A DNA stretch of 11,011 bases from the IMG/VR virus record IMGVR_UViG_2740892233_000013, one strand, 5' to 3'. Within the stretch, counting starts at the first letter, position 1, and every line of letters starts with the position of its first letter. Below the pieces are notes generated by a model that made no database searches, was not told where the DNA came from, and worked only from the letters and a program-made list of their open reading frames with translations. This DNA comes from a virus (taxonomy: Duplodnaviria > Heunggongvirae > Uroviricota > Caudoviricetes). The translations under genes were made by a program, and so were the position numbers. This document shows, in pieces, positions 1-11,011 of this stretch.

Positions 1-1
1 C

Positions 2-413
2 CAGATACGTATTCGCGGTGAGGACACGGCACCGGAGGCGGTGTACGCCCGTCTTCACGAACAGTTGGGTGAGGGAACGGTCATCCACATTGTGCCGCGA
101 CTGGCCGGGGCCGGAAAGGGTGGACTGCAGATTGTGCTGGGGGCGGCAGCCATCGTGGGCTCTTTCTTCACTGCCGGGGCATCAATGGCGTTATGGGGTT
201 CAGCCCTGGCAGCCGGTGGTTTTTCTGCCACCACAATGCTGTTTTCACTGGGGGCCAGCATGATACTGGGTGGTGTGGCTCAGATGCTTGCCCCGAAGGC
301 AAAAACACCGGATTACCGCGCAACGGATAACGGCAGACAGAACACGTATTTTTCCTCGCTGGATAACATGATTGCCCAGGGGAACCCGATGCCGGTGCCT
401 TACGGTGAAATGC
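2..413 (+). CDS. I: Tail assembly protein I, partial (5' end outside window, 3' end runs into N gap)
   Basis: Frame translation ...AVYARLHEQLGEGTVIHIVPRLAGAGKGGLQIVLGAAAIVGSFFTAGASMALWGSALAAGGFSATTMLFSLGASMILGGVAQMLAPKAKTPDYRATDNGRQNTYFSSLDNMIAQGNPMPVPYGEM resembles lambda gpI C-terminal half (from memory). Confidence 0.85.
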
Positions 414-423
414 NNNNNNNNNN

Positions 424-661
424 TCTGGGTGGTGTGGCTCAGATGCTGGCCCCGAAGGCTAAAGTACCGGAGTACAAAAGCACGGATAACGGCAGACAGA
501 ACACGTACTTTTCCTCGCTGGATAACATGATTGCCCAGGGGAACCCGATGCCGGTGCCTTACGGTGAAATGCTGGTTGGCTCCCGGCGAATCTCCCAGGA
601 CATCAGTACCCGTGATGAAGGCGGTGACGGGAAGGTGGTGGTTATCGGGCGGCAGGCATAA
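424..661 (+). CDS. I: Tail assembly protein I, C-terminal fragment with stop (second allele, overlaps previous segment)
   Basis: LGGVAQMLAPKAKVPEYKSTDNGRQNTYFSSLDNMIAQGNPMPVPYGEMLVGSRRISQDISTRDEGGDGKVVVIGRQA, stop TAA at 659-661. Confidence 0.85.
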
Positions 662-666
662 AAGCG

Positions 667-704
667 AAAAAATCCCGCAGTGCTCACGGACAGGAACTGC
701 GGGA
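667..704 (-). terminator. A-run plus hairpin (tcccgcag ... ctgcggga) just after I stop; on the minus strand it reads as hairpin followed by U-run
   Basis: Inverted repeat 673-680 / 697-704 with A6 at 667-672; orientation fits termination of leftward transcription. Confidence 0.3.
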
Positions 705-765
705 GCGTTACGAAGATTGAGTGTAAGGAATTATTCTTATGTCACGACAAAAANNNNNNNNNNGC

Positions 766-798
766 GGAAAGGTCGTGGTTATCGGGCGGCAGGGGTAA
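766..798 (+). CDS. I: Tail assembly protein I, extreme 3' end of a third allele
   Basis: GKVVVIGRQG then TAA at 796-798; same C-terminal motif as 424..661 with a different last residue. Confidence 0.6.
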   Translation, partial: GKVVVIGRQG

Positions 799-804
799 AA
801 AGAA

Positions 805-829
805 TAAAAAAATCCCGCAGAGTTGCGGG
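805..829 (-). terminator. Variant of the post-I A-run plus hairpin (cccgca gagt tgcggg)
   Basis: A8 at 805-812 followed by 6-bp stem and 4-nt loop at 814-829; minus-strand terminator-like. Confidence 0.3.
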
Positions 830-969
830 GACAGACAAAGATTAACGTTAAGGAGTTATTTTTGTTTCTGGTGCTCGGGCAAAAAAAACATTAACGCAGA
901 GAAATTATTAGCACCACAGTCAGTTTGTGAAAATGTGAAGATATTCAGAAGTTTTATTCAATCATGATA

Positions 970-999
970 CAGGCATCCTCCGGGATGCCTGTTGTTTTT
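970..999 (+). terminator. Hairpin plus T-rich tail in I-J spacer (empty, no-sodC allele)
   Basis: caggcatcc tccg ggatgcctg (9-bp perfect stem) followed by ttgtttttg; about 180 nt upstream of J start. Confidence 0.5.
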
Positions 1000-1117
1000 G
1001 TGCGTAACAGTTATCACAGTAAAGGNNNNNNNNNNACATTAACGCAGAGAAATTATTAGCGCCACAGTCAGTTTGTGAAAATGTGAAGATATTCAGAATT
1101 TTTATTCAGTCATGATA

Positions 1118-1147
1118 CAGGCATCCTCCGGGATGCCTGTTGTTTTT
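1118..1147 (+). terminator. Same hairpin plus T-rich tail in the overlapping segment
   Basis: Identical caggcatcctccgggatgcctg + ttgtttttg; 35 nt upstream of J ATG at 1182. Confidence 0.5.
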
Positions 1148-1181
1148 GTGCGTAACAGTTATCACAGTAAAGGGTGAGACA

Positions 1182-1291
1182 ATGGGCAAAGGTGGCGGCA
1201 AGGCGCACACGCCGGTAGAGGCAAAGGACAATCTTAAGTCCACGCAGATGATGAGCGTGATTGATGCCATTGGTGAAGGGCCGATTGAAGG
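1182..1291 (+). CDS. J: Host specificity protein J, N-terminal fragment (allele with empty I-J spacer)
   Basis: ATG at 1182 preceded by aaagggtgagacaATG; [37 protein letters not shown] matches lambda gpJ N-terminus. Confidence 0.85.
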
Positions 1292-1361
1292 NNNNNNNNN
1301 NCATTAACTCAGAGAGGGAGGATGTGCCGTTCTTTTCAGGGAGAAAGGATTTATCGTCCTG

Positions 1362-1392
1362 AGGAATAAAGGTAAGGGGCCCGCCCCTTACC
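1362..1392 (-). terminator. Intrinsic terminator of sodC
   Basis: Just 3' of sodC stop on minus strand: ggtaagggg / ccccttacc inverted repeat (1371-1392) followed on the minus strand by TTTATT. Confidence 0.55.
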
Positions 1393-1399
1393 TGACTGA

Positions 1400-1927
1400 T
1401 TATTGAATGATGCCGCAGGCCATTCTCGCACCACCACCGCCCAGGGGCTCCGGATGGTCATGATGGTTATCACCGCCAGCATGAAGCATGAGAGAACGCC
1501 CTTTAATCTCTTTTAATGAGTTCAGTCTCGGGGCCAGGACCGGGTAGTTCGCTTTTCCGTCATGCGTCACGAACAGCGCAGGGAGGTCGCCCAGGTGTCC
1601 ATCCGGAGACCAGGGGCCAAGATGTTTGCCGGTGTTTTTCGGGTCAAAGTGACCGCCAGCCGATAATGCTGCGACCGGTTTTCCGTCTTTCAGTGCCGGG
1701 GCGCAATTTCCTTTTTCGTGCACATGAAAACCATGAATGCCTTCAGACAGAGAGTGAAGGGCTGGTGTGAACAGCAGACCGTAGGGGGTCTCCTGAATGG
1801 TTATTTTTCCAATGCTGACTTCTTTTCCGTCAGCACTGACAAGGTTCATTGGGACTTCCTGTTCTGCTGCGTATCCGCATGATGCTGCTGTCAGCATGGC
1901 AATGGCAGCAATGATTTTACATTTCAT
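1400..1927 (-). CDS. sodC: Periplasmic Cu,Zn superoxide dismutase (prophage-borne SodC, moron)
   Basis: 175 aa; signal peptide [20 protein letters not shown]; SodC motifs [53 protein letters not shown]; SD GAGGG 4 nt before ATG (rc of 1925-1927); stop rc of 1400-1402. Confidence 0.92.
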
Positions 1928-2060
1928 AAAACCCTCATTAATTCCGTTAACAGACTGAGCTTGCTGGTTACAGGGTAACAAACAGCGTTCTGATGATATC
2001 GCGCAATAGCTGTGCAATATCCTATCACTGCGATTAATAATACCAATTGAGAGGAACATT
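1928..2060. promoter_or_regulatory. Divergent sodC / J intergenic region; should hold the sodC promoter and the J RBS
   Basis: 133 bp AT-rich spacer between divergent starts; J SD gagagga at 2049-2055; only weak sigma70-like hexamers seen on minus strand (TTGCAC ... TATCAT), promoter position not resolved. Confidence 0.35.
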
Positions 2061-2181
2061 ATGGGTAAAGGTGGCGGCAGGGCGCACACACCTCGTGAGG
2101 CGAAGGACAATCTCAAATCCACGCAGATGATGAGCGTGATTGATGCCATTGGTGAAGGGCCGATTGAAGGTCCGGTGAAGG
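2061..2181 (+). CDS. J: Host specificity protein J, N-terminal fragment (allele next to sodC)
   Basis: [40 protein letters not shown]; SD gagagg 5 nt upstream. Confidence 0.88.
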
Positions 2182-2194
2182 NNNNNNNNNNGCA

Positions 2195-2516
2195 ATGGGC
2201 AAAGGTGGCGGCAAGGCGCACACGCCGGTTGAGGCAAAGGACAATCTTAAGTCCACGCAGATGATGAGCGTGATTGATGCGATTGGTGAAGGGCCGATTG
2301 AAGGTCCGGTGAAGGGGCTGCAGAGTATCCTGGTGAACAAAACCCCGCTGACGGACACGGACGGTAATCCTGTGATACATGGTGTGACAGCGGTCTGGCG
2401 CGCCGGGGAGCAGGAGCAGACACCACCTGAAGGCTTTGAGTCCTCCGGGGCGGAAACCGCACTGGGCGTGGAAGTGACGAAGGCAAAGCCGGTGACGCGC
2501 ACCATTACGTCCGCGA
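2195..2516 (+). CDS. J: Host specificity protein J fragment (about aa 1-107)
   Basis: MGKGGGKAHTPVEAKD...GLQSILVNKTPLTDTDGNPVIHGVTAVWRAGEQEQTPPEGFESSGAETALGVEVTKAKPVTRTITSA. Confidence 0.9.
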
Positions 2517-2526
2517 NNNNNNNNNN

Positions 2527-3037
2527 GGCTGCAGAGTATCCTGGTGAACAAAACCCCGCTGACGGACACGGACGGCAATCCTGTGATACACGGTGTGACC
2601 GCGGTCTGGCGCGCCGGGGAGCAGGAGCAGACACCACCGGAAGGCTTTGAGTCCTCCGGAGCGGAAACCGGACTGGGCGTGGAAGTGACGAAGGCAAAGC
2701 CGGTAACGCGCACCATTACATCCGCGAACATTGACCGCCTGCGGGTCACCTTCGGGGTGCAGTCACTGTTGGAGACCACCTCAAAGGGCGACCGTAATCC
2801 CTCTTCTGTCCGACTGCTGATTCAGTTACAGCGTAACGGTAACTGGGTGACGGAAAAGGATGTCACCATTAACGGCAAGACCACCTCACAGTACCTGGCG
2901 TCGGTGATTCTGGAGAATCTGCCTGAGCGGCCCTTTAACATCCGGATGGTCCGGGAGACGGCGGACAGCACCACGGACCAGCTGCAGAACAGAACGCTGT
3001 GGTCGTCATACACCGAAATCATCGATGTGAAACAGTG
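2527..3037 (+). CDS. J: Host specificity protein J fragment (about aa 42-210)
   Basis: LQSILVNKTPL...NIDRLRVTFGVQSLLETTSKGDRNPSSVRLLIQLQRNGNWVTEKD...YTEIIDVKQ; overlaps previous segment with SNPs. Confidence 0.9.
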
Positions 3038-3047
3038 NNNNNNNNNN

Positions 3048-3472
3048 GTGCAGACCACGTCAAAGGGTGACCGAAACCCGACATCCGTCCGACTGCTGAT
3101 TCAGTTACAGCGTAACGGTAACTGGGTGACGGAAAAGGATGTCACCATTAACGGCAAGACCACCTCGCAGTTTCTGGCGTCGGTGATTCTGGATAATCTG
3201 CCTGAGCGGCCCTTTAACATCCGGATGGTCCGGGAGACAGCGGACAGCACCTCGGACCAGCTGCAGAATAAGACGCTCTGGTCGTCATACACCGAAATCA
3301 TCGATGTGAAACAGTGCTACCCGAACACGGCGATTGTGGGGCTGCAGGTGGATGCGGAGCAGTTCGGCGGTCAGCAGATGACGGTGAACTACCATATCCG
3401 CGGTCGCATCATCCAGGTGCCGTCAAACTACGACCCGGAAAAACGCACTTACAGCGGTATCTGGGACGGCAG
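3048..3472 (+). CDS. J: Host specificity protein J fragment (about aa 130-260)
   Basis: VQTTSKGDRNPTSVRLLIQLQRNGNWVTEKDVTINGKTTSQFLASVILDNLPERPFNIRMVRETADS...RGRIIQVPSNYDPEKRTYSGIWDG. Confidence 0.9.
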
Positions 3473-3482
3473 NNNNNNNNNN

Positions 3483-3992
3483 GTAATCTGCCTCCCCGTC
3501 CTTTTAACATCCGGATGGTCCGGGAGACAGCGGACAGCACCTCGGACCAGCTGCAGAATAAGACGCTCTGGTCGTCATACACCGAAATCATCGATGTGAA
3601 ACAGTGCTACCCGAACACGGCGATTGTGGGGCTGCAGGTGGATGCGGAGCAGTTTGGCGGTCAGCAGATGACGGTGAACTACCATATCCGCGGTCGCATC
3701 ATCCAGGTACCGTCAAACTATGACCCGGAAAAACGCACGTACAGCGGCATCTGGGACGGCAGCCTGAAACCGGCATACAGCAACAACCCGGCCTGGTGCC
3801 TGTGGGACATGCTGACTCACCCGCGCTACGGCATGGGAAAACGCCTGGGGGCCGCGGATGTGGACAAGTGGGCGCTGTATGCCATCGGGCAGTACTGTGA
3901 CCAGCGTGTCCCGGACGGCTTCGGAGGGACAGAGCCGCGGATGACCTTTAATGCGTACCTGTCACAACAGCGTAAGGCGTGGGACGTTCTCA
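3483..3992 (+). CDS. J: Host specificity protein J fragment (about aa 168-335)
   Basis: NLPPRPFNIRMVRETADS...CYPNTAIVGLQVDAEQFGGQQMTVNYHIRGRIIQVPSNYDPEKRTYSGIWDGSLKPAYSNNPAWCLWDMLTHPRYGMGKRLGAADVDKWALYAIGQYCDQRVPDG...QRKAWDVL. Confidence 0.9.
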
Positions 3993-4002
3993 NNNNNNNN
4001 NN

Positions 4003-4331
4003 TGGTCGCATCATTCAGGTACCGTCAAACTATGACCCGGAAAAACGCACGTACAGCGGTATCTGGGACGGCAGCCTGAAACCGGCATACAGCAACAACC
4101 CGGCCTGGTGCCTGTGGGACATGCTGACTCACCCGCGCTACGGCATGGGAAAACGTCTGGGGGCGGCAGACGTGGACAAATGGGCGCTGTATGCCATTGC
4201 GCAGTACTGCGACCAGACGGTCCCGGATGGCTTCGGGGGCACAGAGCCGCGGATGACCTTTAATGCATACCTGTCACAACAGCGTAAGGCGTGGGACGTT
4301 CTCAGTGATTTCTGCTCGGCGATGCGCTGTA
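4003..4331 (+). CDS. J: Host specificity protein J fragment (about aa 245-345)
   Basis: GRIIQVPSNYDPEKRTYSGIWDG...ALYAIAQYCDQTVPDGFGGTEPRMTFNAYLSQQRKAWDVLSDFCSAMRC. Confidence 0.9.
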
Positions 4332-4341
4332 NNNNNNNNNN

Positions 4342-4686
4342 TGGCGGCGGATGTTGACAAGTGGGCGCTGTATGCCATCGGGCAGTACTGCGACCAGACG
4401 GTCCCGGATGGTTTCGGGGGCACAGAGCCGCGGATGACCTTTAATGCGTACCTGTCACAACAGCGTAAGGCGTGGGACGTTCTCAGTGATTTCTGCTCGG
4501 CGATGCGCTGTATGCCGGTATGGAACGGCCAGACGCTGACGTTCGTTCAGGACCGCCCGTCGGATGTGGTGTGGCCGTACACCAACTGCGATGTGGTGGT
4601 GGATGATAACGGCGTGGGGTTTCGCTACAGCTTCAGCGCCCTGAAGGACCGCCACACGGCGGTGGAGGTGAATTACACCGACCCGC
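4342..4686 (+). CDS. J: Host specificity protein J fragment (about aa 290-400)
   Basis: AADVDKWALYAIGQYCDQTVPDG...MPVWNGQTLTFVQDRPSDVVWPYTNCDVVVDDNGVGFRYSFSALKDRHTAVEVNYTDP. Confidence 0.9.
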
Positions 4687-4696
4687 NNNNNNNNNN

Positions 4697-5073
4697 CCAC
4701 CCGCGCTACGGGATGGGGAAACGCCTGGGGGCCGCGGACGTGGACAAATGGGCGCTGTATGCCATCGGGCAGTACTGTGACCAGCGTGTTCCGGACGGCT
4801 TCGGAGGGACAGAGCCGCGGATGACGTTTAATGCGTACCTGTCACAGCAGCGTAAGGCGTGGGACGTTCTCAGTGATTTCTGCTCGGCGATGCGCTGTAT
4901 GCCGGTATGGAACGGCCAGACGCTGACGTTCGTTCAGGACCGTCCGTCGGATGTGGTGTGGCCGTACACCAGCAGCGATGTGGTGGTGGATGATAACGGC
5001 GTGGGGTTCCGCTACAGCTTCAGCGCCCTGAAGGACCGCCACACGGCGGTGGAGGTGAATTACACCGACCCGC
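4697..5073 (+). CDS. J: Host specificity protein J fragment (about aa 280-400)
   Basis: HPRYGMGKRLGAADVDKWALYAIGQYCDQRVPDG...VVWPYTSSDVVVDDNGVGFRYSFSALKDRHTAVEVNYTDP. Confidence 0.9.
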
Positions 5074-5083
5074 NNNNNNNNNN

Positions 5084-5647
5084 GACCGAGCCGCGGATGA
5101 CCTTTAATGCGTACCTGGCACAACAGCGTAAGGCGTGGGACGTTCTCAGTGATTTCTGCTCTGCGATGCGCTGTATGCCGGTATGGAACGGTCAGACGCT
5201 GACGTTCGTTCAGGACCGCCCGTCGGATGTGGTGTGGCCGTACACCAACAGCGATGTGGTGGTGGATGATAACGGCGTGGGGTTCCGCTACAGCTTCAGT
5301 GCCCTGAAGGACCGGCACACGGCGGTGGAGGTGAATTACACCGACCCGCAGAACGGCTGGCAGACCTCCACGGAACTGGTGGAAGACCCGGAAGCCATAC
5401 TGCGCTACGGGCGCAACCTGCTGAAGATGGATGCGTTCGGTTGCACCAGTCGCGGTCAGGCCCACCGTGCCGGGCTGTGGGTGATAAAGACCGGACTGCT
5501 GGAAACGCAGACGGTGGATTTCACGCTCGGGTCACAGGGGCTGCGTCACACACCCGGTGACATTATTGAAATCTGTGATAACGACTATGCCGGGACCATG
5601 ACCGGCGGACGTATCCTGTCCATCGATGCCGCCAGCCGCACCCTGAC
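5084..5647 (+). CDS. J: Host specificity protein J fragment (about aa 315-495)
   Basis: TEPRMTFNAYLAQQRKAWDVL...PYTNSDVVVDD...NYTDPQNGWQTSTELVEDPEAILRYGRNLLKMDAFGCTSRGQAHRAGLWVIKTGLLETQTVDFTLGSQGLRHTPGDIIEICDNDYAGTMTGGRILSIDAASRTL. Confidence 0.9.
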
Positions 5648-5657
5648 NNNNNNNNNN

Positions 5658-6167
5658 ACGCAACCTGCTGAAGATGGACGCGTTCGGCTGTACCAGCCGC
5701 GGTCAGGCCCACCGTGCCGGACTGTGGGTGATAAAGACCGAACTGCTGGAAACGCAGACGGTGGATTTCACGCTCGGGTCTCAGGGGCTGCGGCACACAC
5801 CCGGTGACATTATTGAAATCTGTGATAATGACTATGCCGGGACCCTGACCGGCGGACGTGTCCTGTCCATTGATGCTGCCACCCGCACCCTGACGCTGGA
5901 CCGTGAGGTTACCCTGCCGGAGACAGGTACATCGGCGGTGAACCTGATTAACGGCAGCGGTAAGCCGGTGAGTGTGGACATCACCGCACACCCCGCGCCG
6001 GACCGGATACAGGTCAGTACCCTGCCTGATGGTGTGGAGACATACGGGGTGTGGGGACTCTCCCTGCCGTCACTGCGCCGTCGCCTGTTCCGCTGTGTCT
6101 CCGTCCGGGAAAACACGGACGGCACCTTTGCCATCACGGCGGTGCAGCACGTACCGGAAAAAGAAGC
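5658..6167 (+). CDS. J: Host specificity protein J fragment (about aa 420-590)
   Basis: RNLLKMDAFGCTSRGQAHRAGLWVIKTELLETQTVDF...LDREVTLPETGTSAVNLINGSGKPVSVDITAHPAPDRIQVSTLPDGVETYGVWGLSLPSLRRRLFRCVSVRENTDGTFAITAVQHVPEKE. Confidence 0.9.
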
Positions 6168-6177
6168 NNNNNNNNNN

Positions 6178-6504
6178 ACTGGACCGTGAGGTGACCCTGC
6201 CGGAGACAGGTGCCGCCACGGTGAACCTGATTAACGGCAGCGGTAAGCCGGTGAGCGTGGCCATCACTGCACACCCCGCGCCGGACCGGATACAGGTCAG
6301 CACCCTGCCTGATGGTGTGGAGACATACGGTGTATGGGGACTCTCCCTGCCGTCACTGCGTCGTCGCCTGTTCCGCTGTGTCTCCATCCGGGAAAACACG
6401 GACGGCACCTTTGCCATCACGGCGGTGCAGCACGTACCGGAAAAGGAAGCCATCGTGGATAACGGGGCCAGCTTTGAGCCGCAGTCAGGCACCCTGAACA
6501 GCGT
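6178..6504 (+). CDS. J: Host specificity protein J fragment (about aa 495-605)
   Basis: LDREVTLPETGAATVNLINGSGKPVSVAITAHPAPDRIQVSTLPDGVETYGVWGLSLPSLRRRLFRCVSIRENTDGTFAITAVQHVPEKEAIVDNGASFEPQSGTLNSV. Confidence 0.9.
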
Positions 6505-6514
6505 NNNNNNNNNN

Positions 6515-6723
6515 TACCCTGCCGGATGGTGTGGAGACATACGGTGTGTGGGGGCTTTCCCTGCCGTCACTGCGTCGTCGCCTGTTTCGCTGTGTCTGCA
6601 TCCGGGAAAACACGGACGGCACTTTTGCCATCACGGCGGTGCAGCATGTGCCGGAAAAAGAAGCCATCGTGGATAACGGGGCCAGCTTTGAGCCGCAGTC
6701 AGGCACCCTGAACAGCGTCATCC
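6515..6723 (+). CDS. J: Host specificity protein J fragment (about aa 540-605)
   Basis: TLPDGVETYGVWGLSLPSLRRRLFRCVCIRENTDGTFAITAVQHVPEKEAIVDNGASFEPQSGTLNSVI. Confidence 0.88.
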
Positions 6724-6733
6724 NNNNNNNNNN

Positions 6734-6996
6734 TACCTTTGCCATCACGGCAGTGCAGCATGTGCCGGAAAAAGAAGCCATTGTGGATAACGGGGCCAGC
6801 TTTGAGCCACTGTCCGGTTCGCTGAACAGCGTCATCCCGCCGGCAGTACAGCACCTGACGGTGGAGGTGAGCGCGGCTGACGGTCAGTATCTGGCACAGG
6901 CGAAATGGGACACGCCGCGGGTGGTGAAGGGTGTGCGCTTCAGTCTGCGCCTGACCAGCGGAAGCGGAGAAGACAGCCGTCTGGTGACCACCGCCA
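6734..6996 (+). CDS. J: Host specificity protein J fragment (about aa 580-665)
   Basis: [87 protein letters not shown]. Confidence 0.88.
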
Positions 6997-7006
6997 NNNN
7001 NNNNNN

Positions 7007-7188
7007 TATTCCACCGGCAGTGCAGCACCTCACGGTGGAGGTGAGCGCGGCTGACGGCCAGTATCTGGCACAGGCGAAATGGGACACGCCGCGGGTGGTG
7101 AAGGGGGTGCGCTTCAGTCTGCGACTGACCAGCGGAAGCGGAGAAGACAGCCGTCTGGTGACCACCGCCATCACTGCGGATACAGAGC
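7007..7188 (+). CDS. J: Host specificity protein J fragment (about aa 607-670)
   Basis: [60 protein letters not shown]. Confidence 0.88.
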
Positions 7189-7198
7189 NNNNNNNNNN

Positions 7199-7395
7199 AC
7201 CGGCAGCGCCTGCCGGTGTTGAACTGACGCCGGGGTATTTTCAGATAACGGCAGTCCCGAAACTGACCATTTATGACCCGACGGTGCAGTTTGAGTTCTG
7301 GTTTTCGGAGGCAAAAATTGCAGACACATCTCAGGTGGAAACCTCTGCCCGTTATCTGGGGACCGGCAGTCAGTGGAGTGTCTCCGGTCCGCACA
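7199..7395 (+). CDS. J: Host specificity protein J fragment (about aa 705-770)
   Basis: [65 protein letters not shown]. Confidence 0.88.
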
Positions 7396-7405
7396 NNNNN
7401 NNNNN

Positions 7406-7475
7406 GCCGCACAGGTGGAAACCTCTGCCCGTTATCTGGGGACCGGCAGTCAGTGGAGTGTCTCCGGTCCGCACA
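7406..7475 (+). CDS. J: Host specificity protein J short fragment (about aa 750-770)
   Basis: [23 protein letters not shown]; 70-bp segment duplicating the end of the previous segment. Confidence 0.75.
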
Positions 7476-7485
7476 NNNNNNNNNN

Positions 7486-7834
7486 TCTCACGGTGGAGGT
7501 GAGCGCCGCTGACGGGCAGTATCTGGCGCAGGTGAAATGGGACACGCCGCGGGTGGTGAAGGGGGTGCGCTTCAGTCTGCGCCTGACCAGCGGAAGCGGA
7601 GAAGACAGCCGTCTGGTGACCACCGCCATCACCGCGGATACAGAGCACCGTTTCAGCGGTCTGCCGCCGGGGGAATACACCCTGACGGTCAGGGCGATTA
7701 ACAGTTATGGCCAGCAGGGGGAACCGGCCACCACCACGTTCAGGATTAATGCACCTGCGGTACCCGCCACGATTGAGCTGACACCGGGCTATTTTCAGAT
7801 AACAGCGGTCCCGCGTCTTGCGGTGTATGACCCG
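7486..7834 (+). CDS. J: Host specificity protein J fragment (about aa 612-727), fibronectin type III-like region
   Basis: [116 protein letters not shown]. Confidence 0.9.
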
Positions 7835-7844
7835 NNNNNNNNNN

Positions 7845-8465
7845 ATCGTTTCAGTGGTCTGCCGCTCGGGGAATACACCCTGACAGTCAGGGCAATTAAC
7901 AGTTATGGCCAGCAGGGCGAACCGGCCACCACCACCTTCCGGATTAACGCGCCAGCAAAACCCGCCACCATTGAACTGACGCCGGGGTATTTTCAGATAA
8001 CGGCGGTCCCGCGTCTTGCGGTGTATGACCCGACGGTACAGTTTGAGTTCTGGTTTTCGGAGACAAAAATCGCAGACACATCTCAGGTGGAAACCTCTGC
8101 CCGTTATCTGGGGACCGGCAGTCAGTGGAGTGTATCCGGCCCGCACATTAAGCCCGGGAAGGATTTCTGGTTTTACGTGCGCAGCGTCAATCTGGTGGGC
8201 AAGTCTGCGTTTGTGGAAGCCAGCGGGCAGGCCAGCAATGATGCAGAAGGGTATCTGGACTTTTTCAGAGGAGAAATAGGAAAAACGCATCTGGCTCAGG
8301 GGTTGTGGGAACTGATAGATAACAGCCAGCTTGCAGATGAGATGGCGGAGATGAAGACCAGCATCACGGAAACCCGCAATGAAATCACACAGACGGTCAA
8401 CAAAACGCTGGAGGACCAGAGCGCCACCATACAGCAGATACAGCGCGTGCAGAAGGACACAAATG
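7845..8465 (+). CDS. J: Host specificity protein J fragment (about aa 672-860)
   Basis: [140 protein letters not shown]...[11 protein letters not shown]. Confidence 0.9.
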
Positions 8466-8475
8466 NNNNNNNNNN

Positions 8476-9623
8476 TTAAGCCCGGAAAGGATTTCTGGTT
8501 TTATGTGCGCAGCGTCAACCTGGTGGGTAAATCTGCTTTTGTGGAAGCCAGTGGACGGGCGAGCAATGATGCTGCGGGCTATCTGGAACTTTTCCGGGAA
8601 AAGATAGGAAAAACGCATCTGGCAGAGGCGCTGTGGGCAGAGATTGACAACAGTCAGCTGAAGGACGAGATGGCGGAAATGCAGACCACCATCACAGAAA
8701 CCCGCAATGAAATCACACAGACGGTCAGTAAAACGCTGGAAGACCAGAGCGCCACCATTCAGCAGATACAGCGCGTGCAGAAGGACACAAATGATGACCT
8801 GGCTGCGCTGTACATGCTGAAGGTTCAAAAAACGAAAGACGGCATTCCCTATGTGGCCGGGATTGGTGCAGGGATTGAGGATACTGATGGCCAGCCACTG
8901 AGCAACATACTGCTGCTGGCTGACCGTATCGCGATGATAAATCCGGAGAGCGGCAACAGCACGCCGTTATTTGTGGCGCAGGGGAATCAGCTGTTCATGA
9001 ACGACGTGTTCCTGAAGCGACTGTTTGCGGTGAGTATCACGTCATCCGGCAACCCCCCGACGTTTTCCCTGACGCCGGAAGGGAAGCTGACAGCCAGGAA
9101 CGCGGATATCAGCGGAGCAATTACCGCGAATACCGGCACGCTCAATAATGTCACCATTAACGAGAACTGTGTCATCAGAGGGAAACTGTCTGCAAACCAG
9201 ATTGAAGGCGACCTGGTGAAGACGGTGGGGAAAGCCTTTCCCCGGAATAACAGTTATGCCAGCGGGACGGTAACCGTCACAGTTTACGATGACCAGGGCT
9301 TCGACCGGCAGATCATCATTCCCCCGGTGCTGTTTCGCGGGACGAAACACCAGAATTTCAACAGCCCGAATCAGCAGTCGTACTGGTATTCCACCTGTAA
9401 GCTGCAGGTGCTGAAGAACGGGGTTGAGATTTTCCATGAACCGGCAACGGATGTCAGCCGGGTGTTCTCATCGGTGATAGATATGCCGGCAGGGCGGGGT
9501 CATGTCACCCTGACGTTTAATGTGTCGTCGGCCGGTGCGAACAACTGGACGCCGACAACGTACATCAGTGATTTACTGGTTGTGGTGATGAAAAAATCCA
9601 CAGCAGGTATCAGTATCAGCTGA
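8476..9623 (+). CDS. J: Host specificity protein J, C-terminal third with stop (receptor-binding domain allele 1)
   Basis: [39 protein letters not shown]...[71 protein letters not shown]...[21 protein letters not shown], stop TGA 9621-9623; matches lambda gpJ C-terminus (..[18 protein letters not shown]..). Confidence 0.9.
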
Positions 9624-9673
9624 ATTTTATAACCCAGAANNNNNNNNNNATTGCAGAAAAGCGAGAGGTAATT

Positions 9674-9703
9674 ATGCGTAAACTTTATGCCGCCATTTTG
9701 TCC
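9674..9703 (+). CDS. lom: Lom/Ail/PagC-family outer membrane protein, first 10 codons (segment ends in N gap)
   Basis: gagaggtaattATG, MRKLYAAILS; same sequence as 10349..10378. Confidence 0.7.
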
Positions 9704-9713
9704 NNNNNNNNNN

Positions 9714-10281
<568 letters not shown>

Positions 10282-10299
10282 ATTTTATAACCCAGAACG

Positions 10300-10324
10300 G
10301 GCGTCAGAAATGACGCCTTTTTTT
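10300..10324 (+). terminator. Rho-independent terminator after J
   Basis: ggcgtca gaaa tgacgcc (7-bp perfect stem, GAAA loop) followed by T7 at 10318-10324; 19 nt after J stop. Confidence 0.75.
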
Positions 10325-10348
10325 ATTGCAGAAAAGCGAGAGGTAATT

Positions 10349-10382
10349 ATGCGTAAACTTTATGCCGCCATTTTGTCCGCAG
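10349..10382 (+). CDS. lom: Lom/Ail/PagC-family outer membrane protein, 5' fragment
   Basis: SD gagagg 6 nt upstream of ATG at 10349; MRKLYAAILSA (start of signal peptide). Confidence 0.8.
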
Positions 10383-10392
10383 NNNNNNNNNN

Positions 10393-10556
10393 GTTTGTGC
10401 AGCCATTTTGTCCGCAGCCATCTGTCTGGCCGTATCCGGTGCGCCTGCATGGGCGTCTGAGCAGCAGGCCACGCTGAGCGCGGGGTATCTTCATGCCCGG
10501 ACGAACGCTCCCGGTAGCGATAATCTTAACGGGATTAACGTGAAATACCGTTATGA
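10393..10556 (+). CDS. lom: Lom/Ail/PagC-family outer membrane protein fragment (signal peptide and first strands)
   Basis: AILSAAICLAVSGAPAWASEQQATLSAGYLHARTNAPGSDNLNGINVKYRYE; lambda Lom has ..KGINVKYRYE.. Confidence 0.85.
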
Positions 10557-10566
10557 NNNNNNNNNN

Positions 10567-10642
10567 ATGGTGACGTCTTTCAGCTATGCAGGAGACAAGA
10601 ATCGCCAGCTGACCCATTACAGCGATACCCGCTGGCATGAAG
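10567..10642 (+). CDS. lom: Lom/Ail/PagC-family outer membrane protein short fragment
   Basis: [24 protein letters not shown]; overlaps next segment with one nonsynonymous difference (H vs R). Confidence 0.75.
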
Positions 10643-10652
10643 NNNNNNNNNN

Positions 10653-11011
10653 ATTCACGGACACGCTGGGGCTGGTGACGTCATTCAGCTATGCAGGAGA
10701 CAAGAATCGCCAGCTTACCCGTTACAGCGATACCCGCTGGCATGAAGATTCCGTGCGTAACCGCTGGTTCAGCGTAATGGCGGGGCCGTCTGTGCGCGTG
10801 AATGAATGGTTCAGCGCGTATGCGATGGCGGGTGTGGCTTACAGCCGTGTGTCGACTTTCTCCGGGGATTATCTTCGCGTAACTGACAACAAGGGGAAAA
10901 CGCACGATGTGCTGACCGGAAGTGATGACGGTCGCCACAGCGACACCTCTCTGGCGTGGGGAGCTGGCGTGCAGTTTAACCCGACCGAATCCGTGGCCAT
11001 TGATATTGCTT
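10653..11011 (+). CDS. lom: Lom/Ail/PagC-family outer membrane protein fragment, 3' end beyond window
   Basis: [67 protein letters not shown]...[21 protein letters not shown]; lambda Lom has ..[37 protein letters not shown]. Confidence 0.88.

Follow-up and report, generated by a model that had tools for sequence, protein, structure and literature searches.

A known prophage-borne sodC gene in the I-J spacer of lambda-like prophages and the alternative module found at the same site

Prophage-borne sodC genes contribute to fitness or virulence in EHEC and Salmonella as accessory factors, and the closest described relative of the gene considered here is SodC-F of Escherichia coli O157:H7 (D'Orazio et al. 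2008, PMC2569942). In that work, superoxide dismutase activity was measured for SodC-F1, which is one residue apart from SodC-F2, and SodC-F was reported to be dimeric and more stable than the chromosomal SodC, to split into soluble and lipid-anchored forms by way of an AASC lipobox and a signal peptidase I site, to be expressed independently of rpoS, in log phase and anaerobically, and to be relatively enriched in intracellular bacteria; promoter-lacZ fusions were reported as well. The chromosomal SodC, in contrast, is monomeric and rpoS-dependent and is produced only in stationary-phase aerobic cultures (PMC2569942). The copy carried by prophage Sp10 of O157:H7 strain Sakai is also on record in a second paper. 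Genes of this kind belong to the category of morons, which, in the definition of Juhala et al. (2000) as relayed in PMC4104026, are extra genes that separate two genes found side by side in related phages and that come with their own promoter and terminator.

The other system that bears on the present locus is a family of small RNAs. The Hfq-CRAC study of Tree et al. (2014, PMC4104026) described EcOnc22, EcOnc23, and EcOnc24 as three homologous peaks in the Sakai prophages Sp15, Sp14, and Sp11, respectively. EcOnc22 was detected as an RNA of about 85 nt on a Northern blot and was destabilized without Hfq, and three intergenic regions, ECs2942...ECs2945, ECs2718...ECs2721, and ECs2161...ECs2162, ranked 49, 40, and 48 among the top 50 Hfq-bound intergenic regions (PMC4104026). 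In a 2021 review, the targets of the EcOnc22 sRNA are listed as unknown.

The window, that is, the entire stretch of 11,011 nt analysed here, is broken by 27 runs of exactly 10 N into 28 pieces. When mapped on finished prophages, these pieces tile the I-J-lom-tail-fibre region; their order is broadly ascending, and a given stretch can be represented by as many as four overlapping variants. The window thus strings together short assembly fragments of several related lambda-like prophages and is not a physical map. The sodC coordinates, 1302-2181, correspond to exactly one N-delimited piece of 880 nt, in which sodC and the start of J are contiguous and I is absent. A preliminary description of this DNA had seen an occupied and an empty allele of the I-J junction lying side by side. 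Because the pieces are N-joined, however, the two alleles are not physically adjacent: they are separate N-delimited fragments, both of which branch from a third piece, 424-753 (+), whose role as the common left flank that description had missed. This piece contains the 3' end of I (stop codon at 659-661; PHROG annotation, tail assembly protein) and the proximal part of the I-J spacer, and it is the true left flank of both alleles: virtual joins of position 753 to 1302 (sodC allele) and of 753 to 1036 (sodC-less allele) yield exact 40-mers in finished genomes. The practical lesson is that N-joined windows must not serve as physical maps.

The explanation that we hold, as a whole, to be very probable is that of a known prophage gene, sodC-F, in an I-J slot that accommodates alternative modules, sampled here through fragments of several related prophages. 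On this reading, positions 1302-2181 are a fragment of a lambda-like prophage from an E. coli of the Shiga-toxin or attaching-effacing type, in which sodC-F is transcribed against the late operon within the I-J gap and yields an exported, partly lipid-anchored enzyme; by removing periplasmic superoxide, SodC-F benefits the lysogen and not the phage. The sodC-less fragments derive from further, related prophages of that assembly. The slot itself holds either of two modules, namely, a 745-nt sodC cassette together with a variant 5' end of J, or a 131-nt module that provides the promoter of an antisense, Hfq-bound sRNA and a conserved hairpin upstream of J, with both modules abutting the same sRNA body and terminator beside the stop codon of I.

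The junctions were defined by aligning a finished sodC allele, that of strain JB2, with a finished sodC-less allele, that of E2865, and this alignment of finished alleles bears out the proposal that the piece at 1036-1291 (+) represents the same junction without sodC. Both alleles have nearly the same left flank as far as AAAAACATTAAC(T/G)CAGAGA, beyond which 745 nt of the sodC allele (1316-2060) stand against 131 unrelated nt of the sodC-less allele (1051-1181, 39% GC), so that the left boundary lies where it had originally been drawn, directly after the shared motif. The motif itself, CATTAACTCAGAGA, occupies 1302-1315 and is the last sequence common to the two alleles; the stretch first singled out, 1302-1314, was correctly located, but its counterpart in the sodC-less piece, where the full motif spans 1037-1050, lies at 1037-1049 and not at 1042-1054, a shift of five bases. 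The 745 nt specific to the sodC allele (GC 50.5%) comprise a distal 3' region, a hairpin, the coding sequence, and a 133-nt upstream region. On the right side, homology had been thought to resume only at the start of J. Similarity returns around the J ribosome-binding site, J of the sodC-less allele starting at 1182, and complete identity is regained only from nucleotide 58 of J: nucleotides 1-57 show 10 differences and nucleotides 58-110 none. The divergence of the sodC-linked N-terminus of J, noticed at the outset, stands, with GRAHTPRE in the sodC-linked form (2061-2181, +; annotated as gpJ in genomes) versus GKAHTPVE. The window contains a second sodC-less variant, at 764-1025 (+), with a different 3' end of I and a different sRNA body and with the same filler as the first variant save for 3 SNPs. 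Across phages, the I-J spacer measures 60 nt in lambda, about 240 nt in Stx phages that lack sodC, and 851 nt in the sodC allele.

Because the sodC-less allele carries 131 nt of unrelated sequence, the polymorphism is one of module replacement and not a clean insertion. The allele that had been called empty is thus not empty: it holds 131 nt of AT-rich sequence, within which lie a conserved hairpin and the promoter region of an EcOnc22-24 relative. The replaced module reaches about 57 nt into J, and block replacement by recombination between mosaic phages fits the junctions better than simple insertion, although the direction of the replacement event is something that we infer. Under the simple insertion scenario, a self-contained sodC cassette would have landed in an I-J spacer that held nothing else, and the intact target would be preserved in the sodC-less piece. 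The near identity of the left flanks of both alleles up to CATTAAC(G/T)CAGAGA agrees with such an event, as does the short I-J spacer of lambda (only 60 nt), but nothing in the sodC allele corresponds to the 131 nt of the sodC-less allele, in which the conserved hairpin is found together with the -10 element of an sRNA that is expressed, and the first 57 nt of J differ too. Furthermore, no target-site duplication or repeats at the cassette ends were noted in the junction alignment of JB2 with E2865, a general alignment as opposed to a dedicated repeat search. We regard simple insertion as improbable. Base composition gives no independent sign of foreign origin, the GC content of the sodC segment (50-53%) barely differing from that of the flanks (54-58%).

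The enzyme encoded by the sodC module is readily recognized. The minus-strand frame at 1400-1927, which encodes 175 aa followed by a TAA stop at 1400-1402, was initially described as a Cu,Zn superoxide dismutase with a signal peptide, and it matches the relevant protein families far beyond chance: the Pfam Sod_Cu profile (PF00080) is matched with E = 3.9e-32 and 111.9 bits against a cut-off of 28.9, across profile positions 3-133 of 133; the NCBIfam SodC equivalog model (NF007628) scores 218.4 bits against a cut-off of 165; and PHROG 1975, "superoxide dismutase precursor", which is assigned to the category 'moron, auxiliary metabolic gene and host takeover', is matched with E = 9.5e-97. Solved bacterial Cu,Zn superoxide dismutases, the best relatives in the PDB, are recovered with E around 1e-62. 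When the protein is aligned with the O157 copies and with SodCI and SodCIII of Salmonella, the copper ligands H68, H70, H93, and H149 and the zinc ligands H93, H102, H111, and D114 are invariant, such that none of the Cu/Zn-binding histidines has been lost, and the same holds for the C75-C171 pair and for the catalytic arginine, R168. All the ligands, along with C171 and R168, also align with their counterparts in human SOD1, which we take to be H46, H48, H63, and H120 for copper and H63, H71, H80, and D83 for zinc; in this BLAST alignment, C75 is placed opposite a gap, and its assignment as the disulfide partner comes from its invariance in the SodCI/SodCIII/O157 alignment.

The export signal comprises 20 residues (1868-1927, -). 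Residues 14-17 form a lipobox, AASC, whose Cys17 is encoded at 1877-1879, and a signal peptidase I site lies between A20 and A21. As the preliminary description had held, the gene has its own Shine-Dalgarno sequence, GAGGG, read at 1932-1936 (-), 4 nt upstream of the sodC ATG. A terminator hairpin had been placed at 1362-1392; the hairpin is real, being a 10-bp GC-rich stem with a 4-nt loop that folds at -17 to -19 kcal/mol, but it lies at 1370-1393 (-), 6 nt past the stop codon, and its U tail, UUAUUCCU, is weak, which makes it terminator-like. A second terminator on the minus strand is found 185 nt beyond the sodC stop. The 133-nt region upstream of the gene should hold the predicted sodC promoter; no sigma-70 site with at least 9 of 12 matches was found there (1928-2060), and the best candidate is TTGGTA-16-TAGGAT, with 8 of 12.

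Comparison with the described enzymes leaves little room for novelty. The protein is identical over 175 of 175 residues to ECs_1989 of Sakai prophage Sp10, and it is a single residue, L112P, apart from an EDL933 copy (copies are known in CP-933R and CP-933V). Sp10 also shares the I-sodC(-)-J position with the window allele, and the 880-nt DNA is 98.9% identical. The AASC lipobox and the signal peptidase I site after residue 20 are both as in SodC-F1 and SodC-F2 (PMC2569942), from which the window protein differs in nothing of substance. To judge by its identical protein sequence, the window gene is the known SodC-F, with its published biochemistry, and is as such already known; the present copy adds nothing to published knowledge. 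The assignment to a recognizable class of prophage sodC morons, made from the outset with reference to SodCI and O157 prophage SodC, is thereby upheld.

The Salmonella relatives are more distant. SodCIII of Fels-1 (STM0924) belongs to the same enzyme family and is encoded in the same I-J slot in the same antisense orientation, but the proteins are only 60.5% identical, the DNA is about 70% identical within the coding sequence, and the non-coding flanks have no detectable similarity; furthermore, the gap between I and sodC in Fels-1 is 53 nt and lacks an EcOnc22-like sRNA body. SodCI of Gifsy-2 (STM1044) is likewise a prophage-borne periplasmic Cu,Zn superoxide dismutase encoded antisense to tail genes, with metal ligands that match those of the window protein in alignment, but the identity is 58.8% and the gene occupies another slot of the tail cluster, between the lom/M side and L instead of I-J, so that its locus is not orthologous to the window sodC. 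The chromosomal SodC of E. coli K-12 (b1646) shares the family and the metal ligands and is 60% identical, but it has a plain signal peptidase I signal and resides in a core-genome context, ydhK-sodC-ydhF.

It could also be imagined that the window copy is a non-functional pseudogene, the remnant of a decayed moron, and many prophage genes are indeed degraded in these strains, lom and the portal gene of JB2 among them. [quoted passage not shown] Decay of this copy therefore strikes us as very improbable, and we return to SodC-F as a gene carried intact in the I-J slot.

The distribution of the 880-nt piece fits this reading. It is present at a coverage of at least 80% in 547 of the 5426 complete E. 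coli genomes, among them strains JB2 and 03_3013, where it is 100% identical; in the best 20 genome matches, the annotation lists sodC and a tail protein of the J type, called gpJ or host specificity protein J, and at least 1000 contigs encode exactly this 175-aa protein. The sodC piece is also present in two Stx2a phage genomes. In all copies examined, namely, those of JB2, O26:H11 FWSEC0001, Sakai Sp10, and phage Stx2_EH2201, the gene order is K, I, sodC (reverse), J, lom, tail fibre. The position of sodC between I and J, antisense to both, as first proposed, is thus shown by complete genomes and not by the window, whose sodC piece lacks I; the context in the finished genomes is that of a lambdoid prophage. 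As a gene that sits between I and J, which are neighbours in related phages, sodC fits the presence/absence criterion of a moron, and the hairpin past its stop codon, weak though the U tail is, gives it a terminator of its own. The prophage of JB2 is partly decayed, its lom gene being interrupted by ISEc12 and its portal gene frameshifted. An assembly artefact or chimera, in which a chromosomal sodC or a misjoin would have come to lie beside phage pieces by concatenation only, has practically no probability: the window is admittedly an artificial chain of 28 fragments, in which adjacency proves nothing, but sodC and the start of J are contiguous within the piece itself, the same 880 nt form one uninterrupted stretch between I and J in two phage genomes and hundreds of finished genomes, and the SodC encoded on the E. 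coli chromosome, between ydhK and ydhF, shares only 60% identity.

The sodC-less version of the spacer turned out to have an identity of its own. It is found in 149 phage records, mostly of Stx phages, and is usually unannotated, and it is the locus of the published EcOnc22-24 sRNA family, whose Hfq binding is known from the Sakai alleles. The common left flank contains, on the minus strand at 667-753, the predicted body and terminator of an RNA of this family, with a hairpin at 674-703 and a U run at 667-672. This antisense terminator lies directly beside the stop codon of I, and its stem is invariant between alleles, so that it shows no base-pair covariation. The predicted 5' end of the sRNA continues, again on the minus strand, into 1036-1045 in the sodC-less allele or 1302-1311 in the sodC allele. 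A promoter-like site, TTCACA-16-AATAAT, with 10 of 12 matches, lies at 1052-1079 (-) and is a candidate for driving the antisense sRNA. Its -10 element abuts the junction and keeps its position in diverged alleles, where it reads AATAAT or TATCAT; a good -35 element is present in some alleles only. With the start site that we infer from this element, the predicted RNA, from -10 to terminator, would be about 90 nt long in the Sp15 allele and 97 nt in the window allele. Rfam yielded no family, neither for the window at the gathering threshold nor, with E values of up to 5 allowed, for the contiguous sodC-less spacer.

The correspondence with the published family was established by mapping to the Sakai genome. 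In the current Sakai record, the three Hfq-bound regions listed above lie between J and I in Sp15, Sp14, and Sp11, and the EcOnc22-24 peaks fall on the strand opposite the late genes. The coordinates in PMC4104026 are those of an older Sakai record, offset from NC_002695.2 by +139 to +143 nt at AsxR and AgvB1, and the offset that would apply at 2.2-2.9 Mb is extrapolated from these two points. With the offset, the peaks lie just 5' of the antisense terminator; even without it, they still fall within the spacer. A calibration at 2.9 Mb from stx1 coordinates gave an inconsistent +414 and was dropped in favour of the sequence-anchored AsxR and AgvB1 calibrations and of the intergenic table, which is based on gene names. 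The window and Sakai loci share the I-J slot, the late-antisense strand, and the positions of the -10 element and the terminator, and the window alleles are about 82% (1036-1291 together with 424-753) and about 72% (764-1025) identical to the Sakai EcOnc alleles; the window sequence homologous to the sRNA comprises 667-753 plus 1036-1050. The AgvB/AsxR and Pas sRNAs were also considered as identities for the spacer RNA and were ruled out, their published sites being the PR' moron site or positions near the Q, holin, and RusA genes, outside the tail region.

As the I-J site without sodC is, in Stx-type prophages, the locus of an Hfq-bound sRNA, the presence or absence of sodC would also change the sRNA promoter content of the prophage. 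The sodC cassette starts immediately after CAGAGA, within about 5 nt of the predicted sRNA start, and the -10 element of the sRNA is missing from the sodC allele; the body and terminator of the sRNA are retained there, essentially identical, behind the weak-tailed hairpin of sodC, this strong terminator being the second one noted above, 185 nt past the sodC stop. We found no description, in the literature cited here, of an sRNA body and terminator kept downstream of the sodC hairpin with the -10 element removed. From this arrangement, production of the sRNA as a read-through 3' UTR of sodC emerges as a modest possibility. A more general proposition, which we put forward tentatively and consider rather unlikely, is that the I-J gap is a two-state slot for late-antisense cargo, occupied either by an autonomous EcOnc22-24 sRNA gene or by sodC, and that in sodC prophages the sRNA, if made at all, would be a read-through 3'-UTR RNA. 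Were this the case, the sRNA would come under sodC regulation (log phase, anaerobiosis, intracellular growth), and an oxidative-defence enzyme and a riboregulator would be coupled in one transcript. The genes of the I/sodC region of Sp10 (ECs1986-ECs1990, "sodC") have no entry in the Hfq-CRAC supplementary files, and these files show no Hfq signal for the I-sodC spacer of Sp10 (1963484-1963673 in NC_002695.2), which is not evidence of absence. The change of the sRNA promoter at the I-J site may merit work at the RNA level.

The sodC-less spacer has a second conserved element, on the opposite strand. In alleles that have otherwise diverged, a block of about 70 nt has hardly changed; within it, a plus-strand hairpin precedes a T run, and in the first variant this hairpin lies at 1117-1140 (+), 41 nt upstream of J. 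The second variant displays the same arrangement, with the antisense terminator at 814-829 (-), a promoter-like site at 904-931 (-), and the hairpin at 969-992 (+). The hairpin is confined to the sodC-less allele, and its stem shows a compensatory change, from T-A to C-G, between alleles.

The 11,011 nucleotides of the window (1-11011) consist of 28 fragments, each joint between them being a run of exactly 10 N (414-423, 754-763, 1026-1035, 1292-1301, 2182-2191 and 22 more). The order of the fragments approximately follows position along the lambdoid tail region, with overlapping allelic variants placed in succession; neighboring pieces of the window are, therefore, not physical neighbors. The same part of the tail gene J is covered by four pieces within 4003-5647 (4003-4331, 4342-4686, 4697-5073 and 5084-5647), with 94-99% identity to references, which implies that the source contains at least four lambdoid copies of J. 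Furthermore, there are two different C-terminal receptor-binding domains of J (8476-9639 vs 9714-10382), both matching Pfam Ig_GpJ_C; when each is compared with the two reference prophages, nucleotide identity to one or both is as low as about 68-76%, so that, judging from these sequences, the source assembly appears to hold prophages that differ in host-receptor specificity.

The I-J spacer that lacks sodC presents another facet of this region, namely, a match to the locus of EcOnc22/23/24, Hfq-bound sRNAs of Escherichia coli Sakai prophages (Tree et al. 2014, PMC4104026). The matching stretches lie on the minus strand, at 667-753 together with 1036-1079 and, in a second instance, at 798-931, and the corresponding Sakai locus spans 3316-3429 of the Sakai stretch L015. 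Transcription of these sRNAs runs opposite to that of the late genes and ends at a terminator that adjoins the stop codon of I. Rfam searches of the window and of the contiguous sodC-less spacer recovered no family covering EcOnc22/23/24. The coordinates in Table S2 of Tree et al. 2014 are offset from the current RefSeq NC_002695.2 by +139 to +143 nt at two anchors, AsxR (1268630-1268681) and AgvB1 (1941922-1941978), and re-use of that table requires re-mapping.

Upstream of J, on the plus strand, a block of about 70 nt (1075-1145 and 927-997) is nearly invariant among the alleles, with the surroundings diverged to about 73% (alignment A3, which covers this block). It includes, in this order, GAAAATGTGAAGATATTCAGAA, a hairpin and TGTTTTT, and the hairpin carries a compensatory change from T-A to C-G. 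Candidate roles for this block include a terminator or pause site of the late operon, RNA processing, and part of the antisense promoter region.

In the current Sakai annotation, the locus tag ECs_1988 does not exist; the gap, between ECs_1987 and ECs_1989, is exactly the stretch of prophage Sp10 with the retained sRNA body (5485-5674 of L021), and the tag may have denoted a small ORF call since withdrawn.

A sodC piece 100% identical to that of the window is carried by a prophage of E. coli JB2 (L001, 13303-16488). In this prophage, lom is interrupted by an IS21-family element, ISEc12, and the portal gene is frameshifted; the prophage is likely to be defective, yet its sodC is intact.
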